NCBI GenBank assembly: GCA_965649765.1
Contig: OZ287751.1
Coordinates: 70,060,001 to 70,124,000, forward strand
Direction: 5' to 3'
Length of the DNA stretch: 64,000 nucleotides
Source of the DNA: Bispira polyomma
Taxonomy: Eukaryota
A program made the position numbers and the translations under genes. This document shows, one piece after another, positions 9,301 to 62,700 of the stretch (the stretch's first letter is position 1; every line of letters starts with the position of its first letter). The notes below the pieces were generated by a model, which saw only the letters and a list, made by a program, of their open reading frames with translations, did no database searches and was not told the DNA's origin.

Positions 9301-12300
9301 TTCATGGTAAACAAGAAGTCCTGTACACCTGGAAACTAGAACAAACAACAGATTGAAAAGATAAATACTTTGCAGTACATTGGCTTGGTGGAGCTCCTTC
9401 ATGGTAAAGAAGAAGTCCTGTACAACTGGGAACTGGAACAAACAACAGATTAAAAACATAACAACTTGGCAGTACATTGGCTTGGCGGAGCTCCTTCATG
9501 GTAAACAAGAAGTCCTGTATACCTGGGAACTAGAACAAACAACAGATTGAAAAGATAAATACTTGGTAGACTACACTTGAGTCTCCTTTTTATAGTAGTC
9601 CCCTGTGGCACAGTGGTTAGAAAGTTGGTCTAATGATTAAAAGGTTCTGGGTTCTACTCCCGGTACCAGTTGCTAGATTCACTGGTGAGATAACATCCTT
9701 GGGCAAAATGTGTACATGCGTTTGCCTAGTGGCTCGGATGACCACTTAAAATGGCAGTCCTCTGTCACTGGGTCCTATCCCTATTGGTAGGCTAAAGGTC
9801 CTTGGTGACGTTGATAAATTGTCATCCTCAAACCTCTCTCTTCAGCCTTTTAATATTTGATTTTAACAGAACCTTAAGAATTTTACTTTGGTACAAATAT
9901 TAAGTGCTATGGGTGCCACTACAACTTCTCATTTAAGTAGAGTTACTTTTGTGCTTCCAAACAAGGATCTTTTTATTGAACTTTACCCTTTGTAATCAAC
10001 AGCACTTTATTAGTCCACTGAAAGTTCAGTACGTTATGTATGAGCTAATAGGTCAAGGCCAAGATATAAATAGCAACTAAATGCTTAGACGTATTGATTT
10101 TTCTCACTGATCTTACAGCACACTTGCGGAGTATTTTCTTCACATCTAAAATGTACATATTTTCCATGAACAGTAAGCCAATTCAGCATTCCGAGTGCGC
10201 ATGTATAAATGGCGGTATGTGTGCTTCGGTTCGGGATAAAAAAAACACTAAAAGCTTACTAAAACAGATCACGTATTTACATTTTCTGAAATTAAATATT
10301 ATAATGCACAATTATTACAAAACTGAGCTTATAATCGAGAAGCTCTCATTAAAACCTTTTTTTAGATACCAACGTTGCCTATATTAAAAGTTTATATTAT
10401 TTTTTTTAATTATTTCTAAAATTTGAAGTGGAAAGAAATTGCCGGCATTTTGCGGGATTTCTAAATCCTCTATCATTATCGCTTACATATGCTTTTATTT
10501 ATCCCGACGTAGACATGCGCACTCGAAATGCTGAATAGGCTTATACCTTACTACAACTTTAACTCCTGTCAAAGTGCAGGGCCCGTATTCACTAACAAGT
10601 TAAATCCTATTCCTAACTTAGATTTCAGGTATTGTGGCTATATTTTACTAACTTAGATGCAAGTGGTATTCACGAAAGAAAATTTATTTACTTTGGAGAG
10701 AAAACTTACTTAGATTTCAAGTAAGCAGATGAGGTACCTTAGATTTCTTTCCTAACTTTGATTCTAAGTAAAACTTAAGTAAGTAGAGTTTTTTCACTTG
10801 TTGGTGAATACCACTTCTAAGGAAATCTTTGGAAAAATTTACTTACTTTGGAAAGTAAGTAAATTTTTTTTTTTACTTGTTCGTGAATACGGCCCCAGGT
10901 TATTTCTCCTTTGATCCCACAAGATATTTAATTGCACATGATTTAAGTGTGTGCTGTATTTATCTCCACCAAGGAAGTTATGTTTTCACCTGGGTCTGTT
11001 TGATAATTTGTAACCATGATTACATAAAACTACTGCACCAATTAACATGAAATGTAGTTATAGTGGAAGCATCGGCCACAAAGAAGGCATGAAATGTTAG
11101 AGTTAGATCCAGGTAGAATGGTGTATCCAGGAATTTTAAAACTTTTTGGCAATGTTACACCTTGGCTGGCAGATTTACTTAGTGCACTTCTAGTTACTTA
11201 CGTAGCTTTAGTGTCACAATGATTGCACAAATGATACTGAAATAATTTAGAAGTGATAGGTGCTGGAATAGGGCACAAGTTAAGGTAGAATTGATTAAAT
11301 TTTGTAGCAGAATTAAGCATTTATTTTGACACTGTGGCACTTTTGTGGAGATATGTGCTCTACTGAGTGCCATTCTTGTTGTATTTACTTCTACTTATAT
11401 ATCTCTCCTCATGTTTATTTCTTTGTTTGTCACCAGGATTATACAAAAACTACTGAACTAATTTACATGACATGTGAAGTATTGATGGGGCATTGACCAA
11501 GGTCAAATCAAATAAATTTGGAAGTGCATTCTTGATATAGAATGTTGAATTCTGGGGCCATATTAAAAAAAAGTTATAGTCTTCACTAAGTCTTAAGGCT
11601 TAAGATTATGGTCTTTGATTTGGGCAAAAAATGTTAAGATTTTAAGGTTAACTTTGCTTTTAACACTAAGACTTAACAGTATGTAGTCTTAAATATTATA
11701 TACATATACATTGTAGTATATGTTAAGCTTAAGACTAAGAGCTTTTGTTAATAGGGCCCCATGATTTTGTTCCCAGTTTTTGTCACTGTAGCTCCTTGAT
11801 GGTGGAGGGTATGCACTCATACTGAGAAGCCTATTAGTTCTATCTACTTGCACTTACGTATCTCTCCTCATGTTCCACAGTGGTGATAGGCCCCTCCCCT
11901 TCCTCCCTCTCCCCAGGGGGTCGCCATATGTCAACCTTCACCTTACTTCTACCCAAGACGGGCTGTCCCAAACTCAAGCTGTAAAACATTGAGTAATAGC
12001 GGCCATTGAACAACTCTTACTATGGTGAACAGGGCTTGTCTCTAGTAATAGTGGCCATCGAACAACTCTTACTATGGTGTACAGGGCTTGTATCTAGTAA
12101 TAGAGGCCATCGAACAACTCTTACTATGGTGTACAGGGCTTGTATCTAGTAATAGAGGCCATTGAACAACTCTTACTATGGTGAACACGGCTTGTATCTA
12201 GTAATAGGGGCCATTGAACAACTCTGACTATGATGAACAGGGTTGTATCTAGTAATAGGGGCCATTGAATAAGGACAAGAAATAATGTATGCTCTCAGCT

Positions 12301-15300
12301 TTTTCTGAATCTGTACAATCTGAAAGAGTTACATTGGAAGACTGTTTAATAAAAGCTTTAGAAAATTGTCACAGAAGCAAATATACAAACTAAAAGAATA
12401 GTTCTTGATTACATGTACTTCTTTCTGATATTCATCACAAAAATATAAACTGATGAAATACATAGCACTCATTGAATTTTAAAAAGAAAAACCATCGTCG
12501 GTAACTAAAGGAAATGATTTTGGGAATATAAGGTTCCAGATAGCTGGAGTCACGACAACACACATTGCAGAGTACTTCCATTATTTAATAACTGCCTATT
12601 TTTTAAACGCGGAGGTCTGCTGTACTGACAATTTCCAATTTGGGAGAAACTGAAAAAAAATCAAATCATATTTTTGGGGTTTTGACTGCTTCTCGATAGA
12701 CATAGGTTCTGTGGGTAAGAAATGGGGTTGAAAGGGTTAAATAATAACTCCCTCGTAACTTCCTGGTGTCATATTTACAATAAAGGTTCTAGTCTCTTTT
12801 TTTTGTCAACATTATAGATAATTTCAGAAAATACCATAATAAACAGTCTTTACAAATAGAAATAAAATCCTATAGCCTCTGATGATGGTGGTAGATATTT
12901 CCAGTCCACAATAAAATGTTTGTACTGGCATTTTTATGTGTAAACATCTTAACTGTAATGTTAAAAATGTTTAGACTGGAAATAGGACTTGACCAAATTT
13001 ATAAACATTGACAACACACCATAAGAAATTAGAGGACTTTTAGCTGGAATAATGGCGAGCACTGACAGATGCAATCCATTATTATACCAGAAAGTCCGTC
13101 ATTTAATTGTGTTTATGAAGTCTGCAACCTTGATGACTTTATTTGTACAAGAAAAAGTTAAAATCAATCCAGTAAGTACAATACTGAAAGAACGGACAGG
13201 GATAAAGTGTGTCTTATTAAGGAATTAAATAAGTATAAGTAAGTTTCTCCTGTAAACTTTGTTAATTTGAAGTTTAAGGAGCAGATGACAGTTTAAAATA
13301 ATGAAAGTGAAGGTGGAGAGAAATAGAATTATTATATGTGCTTAAGTAGCAGAGATAATGGTCATCATATTAAAAACATATTAATGTATTGATTTATACT
13401 TTGATAAAATTCTACCTACATTGTGATGCTCAGGTTTTGGTTTTACTCAATAAACTATAGTGATAATTATAGTCATATATGTATTATAGACAGCACAAAC
13501 CAAAAAAAAATATTACATGCAGTTAGAGAATAGTCAAGCCTAGTTAAGACAAAGAAAATATTAAAGTAAAAAAATACATGCAATTCAAAAGAAGATATTA
13601 AATGAAACAATAGAAACAATATACTGAAGTAAAATAAATCATGCCAAAAAAACCCAGTAGAGTGTAGTTTAGAAACAATAGATTGAAGTGAAATTATACA
13701 TGCGGTTAGATAGAAAATAAGTAAAGTTTAGCTTAGAAACAATAGCATGATGTAAAGTAAGACATATAGTTAGATAGAAAACAATTAAAGCCCAGTTAAG
13801 AGACAGTAGTATGAAGTAAAGTAAAACATGCAATTAGAAAAGAAATAAAGTCCAGTTTAGACACAACCGACAGATGCAGTCAGATAGAAGCGAAGTAAAG
13901 TCTATTTTAGACCAAATAGATTAAAGTATTATGCAGTTCGAAAAGAAGTAAGGCCCAGTTGAGACACGATAGTATGATGTAAAACAATACATGCACTTGG
14001 ATACAAAAAGAAGTAAAACCTATTTTAGACCAAATAGGTTAAAGTAAAATAGCACATGCAGTTAGAAAAGCAGTAAAGCATATAGTTTAGATGCAACAGA
14101 ATGAAATTAAATAATAGATGCAGTTAGACAGAAAAGAAAGAATTAATACCCAGTTTAGATTCAAAAGATTGAAGTAAAATAATAATACATGCAGTTAGAC
14201 AGAGGAAAAGCCTATAGGTCAAATACAAAAGAATGAAACAAGGTATTACATGCAGTCAGACAGAAAAGAAAGAAATAATGCCCAGTTTCGAAAAAAACTA
14301 GATTGAAGTAAAATCAGACATGTAATTGTACAGAAGAAAAGTAAAGCCTATTTTCAAAAATAAAATATTAAAGTAAGGACAATAGTGGAGTCTACTTTAG
14401 AGACAATAGATTGAAAGTAAAATAATACAACGTGCAGTTAGACAGAAGTTTAGACATAATAGACTGAAGTAAAATATAATACATGCAGTTAGATAGAAAA
14501 AAGGAAAGCCTAATATAGTCAGAATAGACTGAAACAAAATGATACATGCAGTTAGAAGTGAAGTAAAATCTATTTTGGACAACATAGACTTAAGTAAAAT
14601 AATACACGCAGTTAGATAGAAAAGAAGAACAACCCAGTTTAAATACAACAGATAAAGTCTTAATGGCAGAAAGTGACTCACAGATCAAAGTGAGGAGCAG
14701 AAAGTGAAAGTATGCAGAAGAATAGAGAAATAATTTCAAATTGAGTGTGAGGCTTTCCACTTTAGCATATTATGTTTTGATGGGCAGTTTTGTAAGTGGA
14801 GGAAAGTAGAGCAACGTAGTCGGTCCAGATTTCTGAACTGCAAACCACTGGTCTTCATCGCATCTGCTGCCAACTTTCCCACATACATATATTAGAGGCA
14901 AAGATTCACACCAAGGACTGCAGAAGTGTTGTATGGATACTTTTTTTATTGAACAGAGTACCCTGCATTGTGAGACTTAAAGTATTAGTTTTCCTTTGCT
15001 TGACTGCACAATTACAGACAACCAGCACCAGTATTGCATTTTATATTTTTAACTTGCTTTATTGATGTGAGGCATCTTCTAAAGTGAAGCATCTGAATCA
15101 ATCAACCAATCACCTGTCCTACAACATAGCCTGGGTTGTCCTCAGTAGGCAATGGTTCACATCTTGCCCAAGGATGTCATTCCACCAGTGAACCTAGCAG
15201 TCTTAGCAGGAGTCCAATCAGAGACCTTCTGATCACCAAACCAACTCCCCTGACCATGAGTCGAACCGAGAATGTTCTGATCACCAGACCAACTCCATAA

Positions 15301-18300
15301 CCACAAGACCACAGGAGACTGTCATTTATCTGACCAAATACAGAGGTTTCTGGATGACACCATTTATCAATGTCCCGAAGGTTCTTTGGCCTGCCTCTGT
15401 GGAAAAGATCCAATGGCAGGAGGACTGCCATTTCATTTGAAGCTACCATAATCTACCTGTACATGGGAGTCCTAGGCTGAGGTTGAACTGTTTCACCTCA
15501 CTTTCAACAACTGGAAGAAACAGACTTTCTTTTTCTCCGTAAAACCCCACCAAGAGGGCTGGATTTAGAGCTTTCTCTATTGCTGTCCCTATGTTATGTC
15601 AATAGTTGGTAAATGTTATTAGCAGTAAAAACTACTAGCCTTCAGCAAGTCTACTACCAGTTGTTATTTCCCACATACACATATATGCCAGTGTGGACTG
15701 TAGAGGTGGGAGGAGCAAGTATGTTAGTTAAAGTAATAGTATTTAGTCCAGATTAATTTAGATGTTTAAAGTACATGTATTTAAACATCACTTCAGTTGC
15801 TGAAACCTTTATTATAACAGAAAGCATGAATTAAAGTACATGTATGTGTATTTAAACTTCTTTCAGCTAAAAGTTGCTGAACGCATTTAACATAAGAGAA
15901 AGCATGCATGCAGAGTTAAGTTACAAAGAGAAACTCGATCTCAGTGACAACAGAAAAGAAGTGTAGAAATACTCTGAAGAATAAAGAAAAAGTAAAAACG
16001 AAGACAAGAGGAATAGAAAAGGAGACAAATAGACCATGAGAACTATAAAGACACAACACTGAACCTATCAGTTTACCCTTTTGCTGTTCCACCATGTGTG
16101 ACACTTAAATAGAAATGACAGTTGATATCATATGATAAAGTTCATTATTTACATCTAAATACAAGCTACTAAATACATATATACACATATAGATACTGTA
16201 AAATATATATGTATATATAAATATATATAAGGTGAATACTCAACCGTGCTAACACAACGATCACCATACTTTTGTAGCTACTAATATATATTATTAACTT
16301 TCAGCTTCAGCCAGAAAATATGGCTATTGTAGGAAAATATACAATGAAAACACTCCTTTTTAAAAAAAATTTAATTCAACATTAAATATTTATTAAATCT
16401 ATGTTTTTTTGTATAAAATGCATAATGTTCTTGAACTACAAGGTTAACTAACAATGTAAATACATTACAAAAATTATATAAATACATGTACACAGGCATT
16501 CAAGTTTTTAAGAGGGAAACATGAAAAGTATTATCACAAACAGAGACAAGTTTAAGAATATGAGTTAAGTTTCCTTTAATTTTACAAAAATTTGTATTTA
16601 AAAAAAAAAATACTCATGGAATGGTCTAATGACCTGACAGGTGTTATGAATGCCTGGGTTTTGTTGTTATCAATAAGTAAAGAGCCTGAGGGTGCCTTTC
16701 CCAATGTTAACAAGAGAAAGTGACCTTGCGGTCACAAATCTCAGAGACATGTATCTATTTTTCAAGCTGTCTATCTAAAAGTAAACCAATATTGAATTGA
16801 ATATATTATACACTGTATTATTATGCCATGTTGGTTCTATGTACATGTAGTAACAAATCTCACACTCGCTAGGTGGCACTTGCGATTTGCTAGAAATAAG
16901 CTAGCCGCTGATTGGTTGTCACCGGACAACTCCTCGATTTTGAACCAATGAAAATGTAGAAGACAAACTGTGACTGTAGTTTAATATTTTAGAAGCTGCG
17001 CACAGTATAATATTTGGATGTTTTGTTTACATATCAGCGGTGACCGTATATAAATAAAAACTACATATTGGCAAACGCCATAACGGACCGAATCGTCTGG
17101 CTACCAAAGGTACAGTGTCTAGTATCTTCTATTTTCGCTCACGCTCACAGACCGATCAAACAAACCACTTACCAAATAGTCAAAGCTATATTCCGCCATT
17201 GATGCTACACAAATAAAAAGCCATAATATCCTTTTATAAACCATGTCAAAGCACTGTTAGGGGATTATGTAATCCGCCATTGTCACTGAAGTAAAACAAC
17301 TGAAAGGCTGTCATATCCCAACTTCCCTTACAAAACCTGATCAGCCGCCATAAAGGTGTGGTTATTGCTTGGAAATCCCCATGCTTTTAGAGATGGTCCT
17401 AATTTTCAACCAATCCCGTCTCGCCTAGGGTAAATTATGTGTACCGACCTCTGGCGGAGCGAACCGAAATTATTCTAATTAAAATCAATATAAGAAAAAA
17501 ATGGTGTACAACGAGACGGGGTTACTTAGTTAATTATGTTAAAAAATAAATTGTTATAAAACGAGTAATATATATTCTTTCATATATCTATATACTTTGC
17601 ATATACCTTCAAATCTGTTCATATGTTTGCTTTCATATAATTTTATATTCACTATGTTTCTTCCTTGTATATATTCTAGCATATCACCATTAAAGTAGAC
17701 AGATAAATGTACACAGATAAACATGTGTTGATGAATCTTGTAATATACTCGGCATCGCTTTGAAGTAAAAATAAGGTCTCAGATGGGGTGAGTTCCTGAT
17801 TGGCGAAATAAAAAACGATTAATATTGTCTCACATTTGACCTTAACGCGCATGCACATGGGAAACCGGCTATATGTTTACATATTATTTGATACTACAAA
17901 TATGGTGGTTTCAAAAGCTACAGAAGTCTCGCAAACTAAACAAATTTGAATAGATTAAAGCCACTATATGAGCAGATAAGGTGATATTTTGTCAAACTGT
18001 CATATAATAATAATGTTTTTATTGAATTAAGGCAATTTCTTGGCTTTTCGCCATTTCTCGCCCATCTTTTTGAAAAATAGAATTCATCTTCTGTTTAAGG
18101 TCTTCCTTGTACACAGTGTGGCGCCATCTAGCGGTCGAGACTAAAGTTAGAAGGCGTGCGTTCACGCAAGTTAGAAGAAAAATTAGAAGAAATGAATTTT
18201 TCCGTCAGTATGGGTGTATATATATTGTATATATATCCCCAACCCTAGTTTTTGTCACATATATATATACCTATTGAAACCTACGAATCTGACTGGCCCC

Positions 18301-21300
18301 ACGAAAAATGGACATAACAAAATATGCGATAATTGCGAGGTCAAAAGTTAAATTTTATTTTACAAACAAAATAAAAAAATAAATAGATATATTAATGCTT
18401 CTGACTCGTCCTTAGTACCAACCACATGTAACTGCCAAAAATTAACTTAAAATAATGAACGGAACTGGTAGATGGTGCTGTCTACAGACAAAAAACATCT
18501 TCCTATTACATGATCTCGGCGGGCTTCCGCGCTCCGAGATAACAATACATGGCACACGTTTTAAAAGTTTCTTTAAAAATTACAATGCAAAGAGAAAATA
18601 TTTTATATATCAGTAATATTTGCTAGAACAGGTTTGTATTTTGTAAAATACATAAAGTGAAGCACTTCACACACAAACAAGTTTTGAGGGCACAACATCT
18701 CGAAGGTTTTCTGCACAAGGAACCACTGGGAGCTGTGTGTTAAAGGATTAATGGGAAAAGTGTAAATTTTTAGTAGTGTGCATAGTAGTGTTGACTTACT
18801 TGGCACTCATGACCCCGCCCAGTCCATATTCATCCTCCATCATGTAGATAGGTATACTCACATTCACATCTATAGCCGTAATAACTGGTAAGTAAAAATA
18901 CAGAAAAAGAAATTACTAAAACAGACTACAAAATAGGACTGAAAGACTCTTCTAAGTAGCGTAGATTCCTCTTTAATGCTTAGATCAATTACTGGCAAGC
19001 TTTGGAGTCACATTGTGTAAAATGTGACCACAAAATTGGTATTATATGGTCAAATTTAGTCTCAGAATTGAGGTCATGGACCTATATTTTTCCAAGGAAA
19101 AAACTTTTTCTAAATTTGTCTTAAGACTTTAAACTGAAGTCAAGGAAGCCCTTATTTAAATGGATATAATCTCTCAGTTAATATGGTTTTCAATACTACA
19201 TTCAAATATTTTCCTCAATTTTATCCTTGGCAGAAACACAGGGACCTAGCCTGTTACTTGAGAAAAATAAACAAACCTGGGCCACTAATCTATAAACAAA
19301 GCAAACTTAGGACATACACAATTTTCAAAACTCAATATGCTGTCAAACTCTATCCAGATCCCAAAGATCACTAATTGCTCAACTTAGGAGTGGGACTCTC
19401 CCTCTTAAAATAGAAGGCATGAGATTTGGAAAAATGTATAAGGTCAAAGAGAAACTATGTAAATTTTGTGATGAAATTGAGGACGAAAGACATTTTGTTT
19501 TTGAATGTAAACCCTTTTATGATGGTAGAGTAGACTTTATCAATAGTATGAACATTAATTTGATTAATTTTAATGAGTTAAGTATTTGTGAGAAATGGAA
19601 AATGGTTATGTGTAAAACAAACATTTATAAACTAAGTAATATATGTACAAACCATATTTGTAAGTGAGACAAAATATGTTGCACTCAGCTTAAGTTAATG
19701 TTTGGTTAATAAAGTATAGGTTCAGTTTTATTAAAAACTATTTTTATAGTCAATGGTATGTTATATTATATTACCTGAAACGTTTCCTTATTATTCTGTA
19801 ACTTGATTGTAAAGTAAAATATCCTTTACCTTTCATATAGTAATAATATACTAGAAACGTCTTCTCGGCTCTGATAGCCCGCGGAAAGGCCTATCGGGTT
19901 AAGGACGCCGGGAGGTCGGATCTAGTATATTGTAATTTTTTTATATGATATTCTACATTTTATGTTTCATTATGATACCAAAAACCTTTCCTTTCCAATA
20001 TATAAATCAAGTGCTAAGTCAAATTTCCTAACTTTTATATAATAATAGTATGCTAGAAATGTCTTCTTGGCTCTGATAGCCTGCGGCAAAGGCATCAACA
20101 AGTTAAAGATGCTCGGAAGTCGGATCTGGCATACTGTTATTTTATATGTCTGATATTATACATTGTATGCTAATATCATATTAATGCTGTATTTGTACAT
20201 TTAACCTATTTTAACAGGTAAACTCTCTCATAAGCCACAAGTGGCTGGCTGGGTCTAACATTTTGTAAATTGTATTATGTGTTTATATTTACCAGTTGAG
20301 AGTATAATAAAAATCTATCTATCTATCTATCTTCAGGCCCTGGTGCTTACTTGAGCTGGAGTGTGAGTTAAGAATTTGCCAAAGTTTTTGTATATTATGA
20401 AAATGCATCAGAATCCTCCACCATTATAGGAAATTCTAATCCAGACAACATGAATGAAAATATCCGACATAGGCCCCTCATGGTCTAGTCATTAGGGAGT
20501 TGGTCTGATGATCAGAAGGTCCTGGGTTCAATTCCCAGTACTGGCCACTAGTTTCATGGGTGGAATAACATCCTTGGGCAAGATCTGTACACACGTTTGG
20601 CTAGTGGCTCGGATGACCACTTAAAATGGCTGTCCACTGCTGATAGGACCCAGTGACAGGCTAAAGATCCTTGGGGACATTGATAAATGGTCATGCTAAA
20701 GCCTCTCTCTTCAGTCAGGGGAATGACAGTAACTGAGGCAGTTGACTGTTGCAGTCAAGAAAGGGTTATTAAGCATAATAAATACCAGATGAAAGTAGAT
20801 ATAAGTGCTGAGTATAAATCTGATTACAATTCAATTACAATTTACATTTTTAAGACAAGTAAAACTTGAAAAGAAAACTTACAGAATTCATCCACTCTGA
20901 AAGGCTCCTCATATGTGTAACCCTAAAATAGATAAACCATCAATAATAAGAATAGTGGTACTTTAAAACTTACAATGTCTATAGTTTATAAGTATGTATT
21001 TTCTTAATGTACATATTCAAAAAAATTTTCTTACCTTTTATGTAAATTACCGTAAAACTAAAAAATTCAGCTAGACAGAAAATTTACTAATTTATCATTT
21101 TTGTAAAGATATTTACCTCAATTAATTTTCAAAAGATTAAGACAAAGTTAAATTTCTAATTGGAATACATTTTTACTATCTAAACTTACGAGCTAAATTA
21201 GCTAAAAAAATAGTTCATAGTAAAAATTGTCACTACTGTAGTATAATTTTTAACACATTCATATAAAATCTATTTAAACTGACAAAAGATGACATGATAT

Positions 21301-59735: not shown

Positions 59736-62700
59736 CAACTGTAGATTGGTACCACCACACCTACACACACACGTGTCATAAAGTTAGTGTGTTTTTGGGG
59801 TTAGGAATGTAAAAGTAATATAAAAATAGAGTGCTATAGTGATATAAAAGGAATACATCTAGGAAACAATTAATTTTAGGGACTTTCCAAAGTAGTTTTT
59901 TGAGAATACCACAAAAACTGTATCAAAACACATGCCACTCAAATATGTTTTAGCTGAGTTTTCTAGGTTTTTAACTGACTAATGCATTTTCTTATTGAAA
60001 GTTAGTTATAAGAGAAAGTTAATTGATTTAAATGATAGAAAAAAAGAATATTCAACATCAAAGGATATGCTTGGTATCTAATAAAGCTTCAGTTTCAGGT
60101 GCTCCTAAAATGACCTGGTGTTATTGATTTTCGTGAAGGGGAATTTACTATAGTAGATAGATAGATCGATTTTTAATATACTCTCACCTAGTAAATATAA
60201 ACACATAATACAATTAATAAAATGCTAGACTCAGCCAACAGTAGACAATATCTATACCTTGATTAATTATTATGTAATTTGGTAGTTTAGATAGTCATTT
60301 ATTAAAAAAAAAATAACTCAAACTTTTATATGTAGGATACTACTACATGATTAATTTATTAATAAAATAAAACTACTTTCAATCTTTTTTGTGTCAGTTA
60401 TTTTTCTTGAAAAAAAAAAAAAAATTTACAATAGTTAAAATAAATATTTAACTTGCAGATGGAAGAAAGCTTTCTCCCATTTAGTCATTTGGTACAAATT
60501 TGTTTATGCAATAAAACAAAGCAGATATTATCCAGTCTGTAGTGAAGAACTAAGACGGACAGGGAGTGGTTATCCTTCCATGCAATAGCTAGAATGTACA
60601 TTTTTCTGCACGTGATTTATGGTTAACTACATTTAACAAGACCAACGGATTTTATTTCTCGAAATAATGATGACTCAGCTATAAATTGTCTTAATTTCTT
60701 TTTTGTTACAGACAATTACAGTTTGTTTTTTTTTTTGTCTGAATAAAACAGTGGCATTATTTCAAGACAAGAGAACATTTAGGTTTAAGGCTTGGTATCA
60801 TACAGATGAATGTTCGGCAGTAATCGTTGCATCTGGCAAATCTTGGTTCGTGGGCTTTCGTCCATGAATAAATCGCCACAAATCCCCCAATCCATCCCAA
60901 TGGCCACGAAGTTGTGGCATATTTGAAATATTGTATAAAGAAAATGCGATAGACCTGCCACTAATACCCACTAATAATTCACAAATGCCCATTAATCGCA
61001 AATAAAAGTCACTAACTGCTACTAGTTTACATTAATGCATTAACCCATGCATTAAATACATTAACCCCTCCACCCCCCTACAAAAACTCTCACAAACGGC
61101 ATTTTTACCACATATGTTTTAAACATTCCAAAACTTTAGCGGTGGCACGATTAATGCTTACAGGTAACAACGATGAGTTCAGAATCACTCCTAATGTAGG
61201 CTTAGCTGAAACAAAGTTGAAACGTACAGTCTCTGATCGATACGAAGATGTTCGTGATGCATTCATAATGGCCATCCTTGTAAATGAGACCTAGTTATTA
61301 AGTACTTCAGACGATACATTGAAGGATTTGAGATGTGGCTTTGTTCATGTATATATGTATATAGTTTAAAAGAAGACACATATTAATAACTATATTGATA
61401 ACACTTATCGTGTGCTGGTCATTGTCACCTTGAAGAAACAGAAATGTATAAAATGGATTTAAACAGAGACAAAAAAATCTGACGACATAGAGTGAGACCC
61501 TTGTGTGAACAAGGAAAGATATAAGAAAATAGCACTCAAAAATTGAGGGGAGGGGAAATTTATAAACCTTCTCAATGACACTTTCATTCTCAACGACAGA
61601 GTAAATTATCATGCAGTGTTCTAGAGGCCAGAAGTAGTAAAAGTCCTTTTAATTTAAATATAAGTTGGCCTGTATTTTAAAAACAGAGTTTGATTAAGCA
61701 ATGAATGTCTGAAATGTGTAAAAACAAAACAAAAAAAAAAAAAAAAACAACAAAAAAACTATGTTACAAACAAAATTTTTTTTAATCTTCTGGTCATATT
61801 ATAACTGTTGAGAACTCAAAAATGTCATATGATGCAAATATAACAACGGATTCATAATTATATGTAACATAAAACAAATTTAGGAGATATCTTAGCTATC
61901 GTGGGTTTTTGGGAAGGGGGAACATAGAAATAATTTACTTATGATAAGATAAAGTGGTTTGGGTGTGTATATTGATCAATTATAATCATCATCATTCATT
62001 ACACTGCAGTCTATTTTATGGGTCCTTCTTGTCGCAGATTTAGATATTTTATTTTCCAGGGTATCATTATTAGAACGGATATATCTATAAATAGCTCTTG
62101 GTTGGTTTGTGTGGGGGAGGATTCGCGTGGCTCAAGATATATATTATAATAAAATCTATAAAAATAAGAGGTAGAGCACTTCATACACATCACAAGGAAG
62201 TTTGAAAAAAAAATTATTTACACCCGAACCGGGCGGGCGTGTCAGAATATTTACAGTTATATAGTTGTGTACTAGACCTTTTTAAACTCAGAATTAAGCA
62301 GGAACCACTTCTGAAAACAGGAAATGTATACAATATATCAAATATAAGAATTATATTACAGTGAAACAATAAGATAGTCACATGATTTCAGCCAGTTGAG
62401 TTTGTCATGGTTGGTTTAAATCAACGTCTTTTTTGTGTGGATAGGAAATATTTAAGTTCTAGAATTAAAAAAACAAATCCCGACAAATCAACATTCATCA
62501 TGTCCACGTACAAGTGTTTTTATGAGCACGTGGACAGATTTATTATATCTTTCCGCCCATATATTTTCATTAACTTTAGAAGGACGGAGTATATATTGGA
62601 GTGATTTTGGAGATATAAAAACCTTTTCCATGTTTAAAGTGGAAGACACATCAGGATATATAGTTTGGGAAAGTAAATTTGGGGTTTGGAAATCAGTTTT

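Follow-up and report, generated by a model that had tools for sequence, protein, structure and literature searches.

Three distantly related LINE lineages of Bispira polyomma (families A and B and an L2-type LINE) carry in their tails a common module of about 90 letters. The module is real and apparently undescribed, a portable RNA element of LINE 3′ untranslated regions (UTRs) seen in one genome, for which we propose a putative function below. Comparison of its subfamilies indicates that a sense-strand fold is under selection in families A and B and was kept while both lineages were active. Judged by the sequences of its carriers, the module also moves between lineages and appears to be under looser constraint outside its home clade. 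A stronger mechanistic lead than the function of the module itself comes from a predicted pairing between the ORF1–ORF2 junction and the 3′ end of the same LINEs, which may serve stop-codon readthrough. Neither the motif nor the junction–terminal pairing was described in the literature searched, which lay outside most subscription papers and the Repbase reports.

The module was noticed in a 64,000-nucleotide (nt) stretch of contig OZ287751.1 (positions 70,060,001 to 70,124,000, forward strand; hereafter the window), where a preliminary description had pointed to two GC-rich structured islands on the sense strand of a LINE 3′ UTR (Table 1). These observations stand: the islands contain 49% and 41% GC against 22–23% in their flanks, the closing stems of both copies are present together with two A–U to G–C swaps, and folding favours the plus strand (z −7.8 and −5.7, against −3.7 and −3.6 on the minus strand), with none of 200 shuffles folding as well as either hairpin. 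An ORF2 zinc-finger remnant lies upstream and AATAAA with TCTA repeats downstream, and the 30 related loci mostly have this 3′ end in common while their 5′ ends are ragged. The islands are parts of a longer tandem duplication (204 bp, 75% identical). The ORF2 remnant is interrupted by indels, and its likeness to longer copies starts at 19253; a longer copy of the same LINE (L031) contains an RVT_1 domain, and intact relatives encode an endonuclease and a reverse transcriptase (RT). In motif copy 2, the apical helix has decayed through changes private to that copy. The window copy is the fossil of a dead LINE, without a function of its own.

Elsewhere in the window, the same LINE has left another short piece of its 3′ end at 60154–60237 (minus strand, 90% identical), and a repeat resembling a tRNA, which Rfam matches weakly to its tRNA family (19.7 bits) and which is probably the head of a SINE, occurs at 20480–20600 and again at about 9617–9724, 15155–15311 and 36673–36746. 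Before the start of the window, at distances of 7 and 14 kb, the minus strand carries two TED exons (G000:C4:70045566–70053283), consistent with the window lying within a thioester-protein gene of the TEP/A2M family on that strand, the candidate Mcr of the preliminary description; the longest minus-strand open reading frames of the window received no Pfam name.

Table 1. Parts of the LINE copy in the window (positions are those of the window).
Feature	Positions	Strand	Basis or remark
3′ part of LINE ORF2, family A, 5′-truncated, including the C-terminal zinc-finger region	19253..19693	+	translation
3′ UTR duplication of 204 bp, first unit	19757..19960	+	blastn self-match, 75% over 211 nt
3′ UTR duplication of 204 bp, second unit	19961..20165	+	blastn self-match
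Motif copy 1, long irregular hairpin of about 35 pairs	19843..19933	+	fold z −7.8; model score 115.9 bits
28-nt core, invariant across six subfamily majorities	19867..19893	+	one C missing in the window copy
Motif copy 2	20041..20141	+	fold z −5.7; alignment; 117.3 bits
Terminal element (outer stem and AGCC/GGCU hairpin), putative RT-recognition site	20223..20302	+	
Distal tract, 12 nt complementary to the family A tract behind the ORF1 UAG	20245..20256	+	predicted readthrough pairing
AATAAA and TCTA-repeat tail, 3′ end of the element	20306..20331	+	sequence; related loci end alike

Copies of the motif are numerous. In a DNA search of this genome, 40 of 313 candidates were scored and all of these matched, and a 22-nt core pattern had 81 exact matches in the genome against none for the reversed control. 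A motif model built from 43 copies was used to align 90, and the nested fold that emerges is one rod, in which an outer stem leads through an AA/GA loop to a middle stem, and from there through a purine-rich loop, with CUGA opposite ARGAY, to a short helix that is followed by a C/UAA bulge and capped by four bases. Two further proposals of the preliminary description, an apical UGAU/AUCR hairpin and a pseudoknot or switch formed by two alternative helices, suit the subfamilies worse than this fold. The apical hairpin contains an A·A mismatch in five of six subfamily majorities and fits the window only through changes particular to its two copies. Each alternative pairing loses one of its six pairs in family B, through the very U–G to G–U swap that keeps the nested stem, and neither helix is backed by a two-sided change. 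A kink-turn of the box C/D type consists of a 3-nt bulge followed by tandem G·A pairs; here CUGA opposite GAUG permits tandem G·A pairs only with a 2-nt bulge, and an alternative Watson–Crick register folds equally well.

Because dead copies decay neutrally, the informative comparison is that of subfamily with subfamily. Six subfamily majorities were derived from 88 of the 90 aligned copies, a cluster of two being left out. All 16 derived pair states among them stay paired, five through a two-sided change, whereas 212 of 438 copy-private changes (48%) break pairs (Fisher p = 3 × 10−5), and a 28-nt core is invariant in all six (P = 0.0026 for a run that long); both values are optimistic, since they come from one genome, from a structure drawn from the same sequences and from subfamilies clustered on the same columns. 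Unpaired positions are similarly fixed, 16 of 18 being invariant across subfamilies. In dead copies CpG sites decay at 20% against 5.8%, and the CpG-rich core is nonetheless unchanged from subfamily to subfamily. The picture has blemishes: one pair (G–C in B, C–G in young A) is mismatched in four of the six subfamilies, one apical pair is C·A in four of six, and counts of pair types are no better than in shuffles. That the loop bases and the paired core are fixed hints at recognition or tertiary packing. With covariation between subfamilies, no motif match in Rfam 15 (at E ≤ 5 in the window and at E ≤ 10 in one A and one B copy) and an origin as a DNA MITE refuted, the original proposal of a structure-selected RNA element in a LINE 3′ UTR is supported.

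Evidence for the genomic setting comes from 51 fetched matches to the 22-nt pattern, those beyond the copies already collected, whose flanks belong to family A in 25 cases and to family B in 21, with five below the blast threshold for both. Inspection by eye or translation placed four of the latter in LINE UTRs, which brings the LINE UTR context to 50 of 51. The remaining match (L091:2300–2322) is a bare 22-nt core without stem or LINE flanks, by chance or as a remnant. Another 3′ fragment of family A has been carried along in a 4.3-kb tandem array, which has five or more nearly identical units (L037; G000:C7, 48214000–48234000).

The module and its carriers have different histories. Between A and B, ORF2 is 33–37% identical and the motif 81–89%, with the similarity beginning at the stem foot. 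Family B is the sister of a motif-less family, and a single clade of motif carriers was rejected (p-AU 0.028, tree of 19 rows). Within A the module was duplicated, and then again in the A′ branch (one copy), a third ORF2 branch that is 55% identical to A and acquired the UTR of A within the 3′ arm of motif copy 1. The third carrier, which we take to be L2-type from its C-terminal signature, has a B-type motif right after its stop codon and an RT only 27% identical over 109 amino acids. Among 30 fetched copies of this LINE (L527–L556) the motif is whole in 18, partial in three and interrupted in one, and eight have the empty ancestral junction, the insertion of about 150 nt comprising the motif and family B flank. 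The older filled branch has the B sequence. The younger branch has six pair changes, of which three break pairs and one is compensatory, and a core G is changed in five of 11 copies; it amplified well while core bases changed, which shows that here the module can ride along as a passenger. Taken together, the sister relationship of B, the acquisitions by A′ and the L2-type LINE and the broken pairs of the younger branch argue for a mobile module whose constraint is looser away from its home clade. Seven sister lineages, several with intact ORF2 copies, are without the motif, as are further elements seen, so the module is accessory.

Outside this genome, exact motif patterns had no match in viral contigs, which likewise contained no ORF2 relatives; a loose pattern in metagenomes gave no model match among the 80 loci listed; the one pattern match in GTDB lies in a bacterial reading frame and is stemless; and phage records contained no motif match. 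As these collections hold few animal genomes, the zero counts are silent on other animals. The clade of the window LINE encodes an APE-RT ORF2 with a C-terminal zinc finger, as in Proto2/RTEX-like LINEs, a name that we offer as a lead rather than a result. Homologues include medaka proteins, and a Proto2 family of medaka is listed in an excerpt of PMC7846101.

Every family of A's clade that was examined ends in a separate terminal element just before AATAAA, consisting of a family-specific, covarying outer stem and an AGCC/GGCU hairpin. Stringent LINEs carry 3′-terminal stem–loops for RT recognition (PMC3747384, excerpt), and by analogy we infer that the terminal element is the RT-recognition site. 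The suggestion that the motif itself is recognized by the RT is correspondingly unlikely, because each family examined has its own terminal hairpin and seven lineages have no motif. In two loci (L088:2732–2893 and L075:2599–2887) one terminal element is followed by another of a different type, evidence of 3′-end swaps. Six family A copies (L330, L335, L342, L343, L344 and L352) start at, or no more than a few bases from, the 5′ boundary of the terminal element and are preceded by unrelated sequence, indicating a truncation hot spot there.

The terminal element may have a second role. In A, B and the five motif-less families tested, a single in-frame UAG joins ORF1 and ORF2, and no in-frame Met precedes the endonuclease motif at the junctions inspected; L315, L316, L319 and L323 deviate from this pattern. 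The family of L315 and L316, which is without an in-frame UAG, has a pyrimidine tract ending in CAG before the complementary tract, possibly a splice acceptor for reaching ORF2. Family by family, a tract 7–18 nt past the UAG could base-pair with the 3′ arm of the terminal hairpin, some 4 kb distant, and the two sequences change together. When the junctions and terminal hairpins of seven families were permuted (L307, L313, L068, L072, L076, L325 and L318; window positions 20245–20256), only three of the other 5,039 permutations were as good as the cognate pairs (P = 0.0008), the two ends being taken from different copies for A and B. Among 473 windows, the junction ranks first in four families and sixth or better in the remaining three; in family A (L307) the 12-nt duplex reaches −27.4 kcal/mol, the best of 473. 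An in-frame stop with a covarying distant partner is thus what the junction and terminal hairpin present. UAG-G contexts generally need downstream structure, and in CIRV the pairing spans more than 3.5 kb (PMC13517186, excerpt); the LINE mechanisms that a review describes are termination–reinitiation (PMC5972666, excerpt). From these sequences we infer that ORF2p is made through UAG readthrough. The motif has no distant pairing partner common to A and B. Among the seven motif-less lineages, which have the same terminal element, several combine the same UAG junction with intact ORF2, so the motif is needed neither for readthrough nor for survival.

The 5′ ends of truncated copies bear on how the hairpin behaves as a template. 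Counted from the G of GGCUCUGA, starts are denser in the 3′ arm: the 21 nt at +34 to +54 contain 17, the following 66 nt 15 (p = 0.0004). The copies were picked by their 3′ parts, the list was cleaned by hand (removal of antisense anchors and A′ junctions, addition of one copy and shifting of another), and the bins were chosen post hoc. Seven truncated copies begin at +34 to +40, several of them compatible with the same G; in a less biased set three of 60 do so. A candidate cut site at 19918–19920 was rejected, as the starts there belong mostly to the recombinant subfamily A′. The cluster fits RT stalling in the stem better than one cut, denser 3′-arm starts being expected if the stem forms in the RT template.

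We tentatively favour the motif as an accessory, fold-selected hairpin of the LINE 3′ UTR, traded between lineages, that may act as a platform for a protein protecting the mRNA or raising translation of a readthrough-type mRNA. Among the roles considered at the outset, RT recognition and a pseudoknot or switch have fallen away and catalysis has nothing positive beyond the spread cluster of 5′ ends; stability or translation seems the most likely that is left. Being optional, the motif would improve rather than enable. In such an mRNA most ribosomes would stop at the UAG about 4 kb from the 3′ end, and a stop at such a distance would make the RNA liable to nonsense-mediated decay. Pairing of the junction with the terminal hairpin could then bring the motif, 80–400 nt upstream of the terminal hairpin, near the terminating ribosome, where a factor bound to it might shield the RNA or tune readthrough or the yield of ORF2p. 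The relaxation after capture by the L2-type LINE, where three of six subfamily changes break pairs, is in keeping with a function linked to the clade of origin. A bolder version, which we consider unlikely, is that the terminal RT handle opens to pair behind the ORF1 UAG in the manner of a plant-virus switch, with the hairpin as a mobile recoding enhancer or shield against nonsense-mediated decay, traded between lineages.

It is similarly improbable that the motif is a second binding site for ORF2p or ORF1p, acting in RNP assembly or cis preference and possibly derived from a duplicated terminal hairpin. The 5′ strand of the core is like that of the terminal element minus one base (8.3 bits, where a true terminal element scores 18.6; shuffle P 0.008–0.026), a natural recombinant (L136) joins core and terminal element at this likeness, and constraint relaxes in the L2-type host with its divergent RT. 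The resemblance is, however, weak and was noticed after the fact, and A and B have exactly the same core despite sharing about one-third of their ORF2 residues, whereas the terminal element varies by family. More doubtful is a passenger hairpin spread by template switching of the RT, under weak selection for double-strandedness. Swaps of 3′ UTRs are common in the genome (A′ took the UTR of A, and L088 and L075 have two terminal elements), the RT appears to stall in the arm, and the L2-type branch tolerates broken pairs; against this, none of the 16 subfamily changes in A and B breaks a pair, five are two-sided, loop bases are fixed and CpGs are retained.

Cleavage is a very unlikely function, whether by a self-cleaving ribozyme of a new class or at a regulated cut site, with the cut in the purine-rich strand before GAUG. 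The invariant core is of ribozyme size, and the seven copies noted above start within 7 nt at that strand, but starts spread from +34 to +54, the narrower range was picked post hoc and only three of 60 copies in the less biased set fall within it. Cleavage would, moreover, part the ORFs from the terminal element. The preliminary description had seen by eye no fit to hammerhead, HDV, twister, pistol or SECIS consensus; a renewed check of the hammerhead, hairpin, twister, pistol and HDV layouts, by eye and with Rfam, was likewise negative. A hammerhead requires CUGAnGA flanked by stems I and II (PMC10085705, excerpt), whereas all six subfamilies read CUGAUAG and, on inspection, their flanks cannot make stem II with the GAAA block.

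We give an equally low probability to an NXF1-binding nuclear export element resembling the constitutive transport element (CTE). In one loop strand and a bulge the motif is similar to the 3′ arm of the SRV-1 half-CTE (PMC4330393, primers; excerpt), tandem copies strengthen CTE-like elements (PMC4174252, excerpt), and an NXF1-binding element of the human L1 3′ UTR has been reported. The CTE needs an AAGACA strand in a symmetric internal loop (PMC4330393 and PMC4174252, excerpts), but this strand is missing here and the loop profile (14–15 of 24) is at shuffle level (P 0.32–0.88); alignment of the 3′ arm to the CTE gives P 0.03–0.46. Capture from the intron of the host NXF1 gene was likewise rejected, as the motif model reaches at best 18.5 bits at that locus and so misses the canonical CTE-like loops of the intron. 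The host gene (Pfam RNA-binding, LRR and TAP_C exons) does contain, in the stretch that separates its LRR exons from the C-terminal ones, two CTE-like hairpins whose loop strands are those of the SRV-1 half-CTE and whose folds are modest (z −1.3 and −1.5); they lie at L271:436–530 and L271:2230–2325 (G000:C2, about 82118140 and 82119935). One study (PMC4338338, excerpt) detected NXF1 CTEs in vertebrates alone, with none in C. elegans or Drosophila, and no report of an invertebrate NXF1 CTE was found in the literature searched.

Least probable by far are a SECIS-like recoding hairpin and a DNA MITE with an inverted-repeat stem. A SECIS element combines a RUGA quartet, a continuous helix II and an apical AAR; the motif offers UGA, AAA 11 nt later in the apical loop and a possible tandem G·A quartet, but reads CUGA, has a 2-nt bulge above the quartet, has no Rfam SECIS match and accompanies no in-frame UGA, UAG at the junction being the sole conserved in-frame stop seen in A and B. 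The nearly perfect outer stem would suit a MITE, against which stand the LINE UTR context of all 51 fetched pattern matches except one stemless 22-nt match and one-sided subfamily changes that yield G–U pairs on the sense strand.

Most known LINE 3′ UTR structures are lineage-specific handles for the RT of the element itself. An internal hairpin that is under selection and is handed on intact from one lineage, or even one clade, to another would add a further layer of portable RNA control, and the L2-type LINE preserves both empty and filled alleles of its insertion. If true, the junction–terminal pairing would be a new answer to how a bicistronic LINE produces ORF2p, tying ORF2p synthesis to an intact 3′ end and so coupling translation with reverse transcription.

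Several known systems share parts of this design. The CTE of SRV-1/MPMV and the NXF1 intron and the NXF1-binding element of the L1 3′ UTR are also long hairpins with purine-rich internal loops, used in tandem and on unspliced retroelement RNA; the motif differs in having no AAGACA strand and a loop profile that matches at chance level. The portable 3′ enhancers of plant viruses (I-shaped structure and CXTE; PMC8708638, excerpt) are rod-like 3′ UTR hairpins of similar size that spread between families by recombination, an analogy only, since the motif showed no 5′ partner and the LINE RNA probably has a cap. CIRV readthrough (PMC13517186, excerpt) likewise involves a UAG-G stop and a complementary partner about 4 kb downstream at the 3′ end, whereas in the animal LINE the pairing is predicted from covariation and its partner is the terminal hairpin, not the motif. 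The stem–loops of stringent LINEs (UnaL2, SART1 and monocot L1; PMC3747384, excerpt) are also covarying sense-strand hairpins of LINE 3′ UTRs; by comparison, the motif is internal, much longer, optional and common to several lineages.
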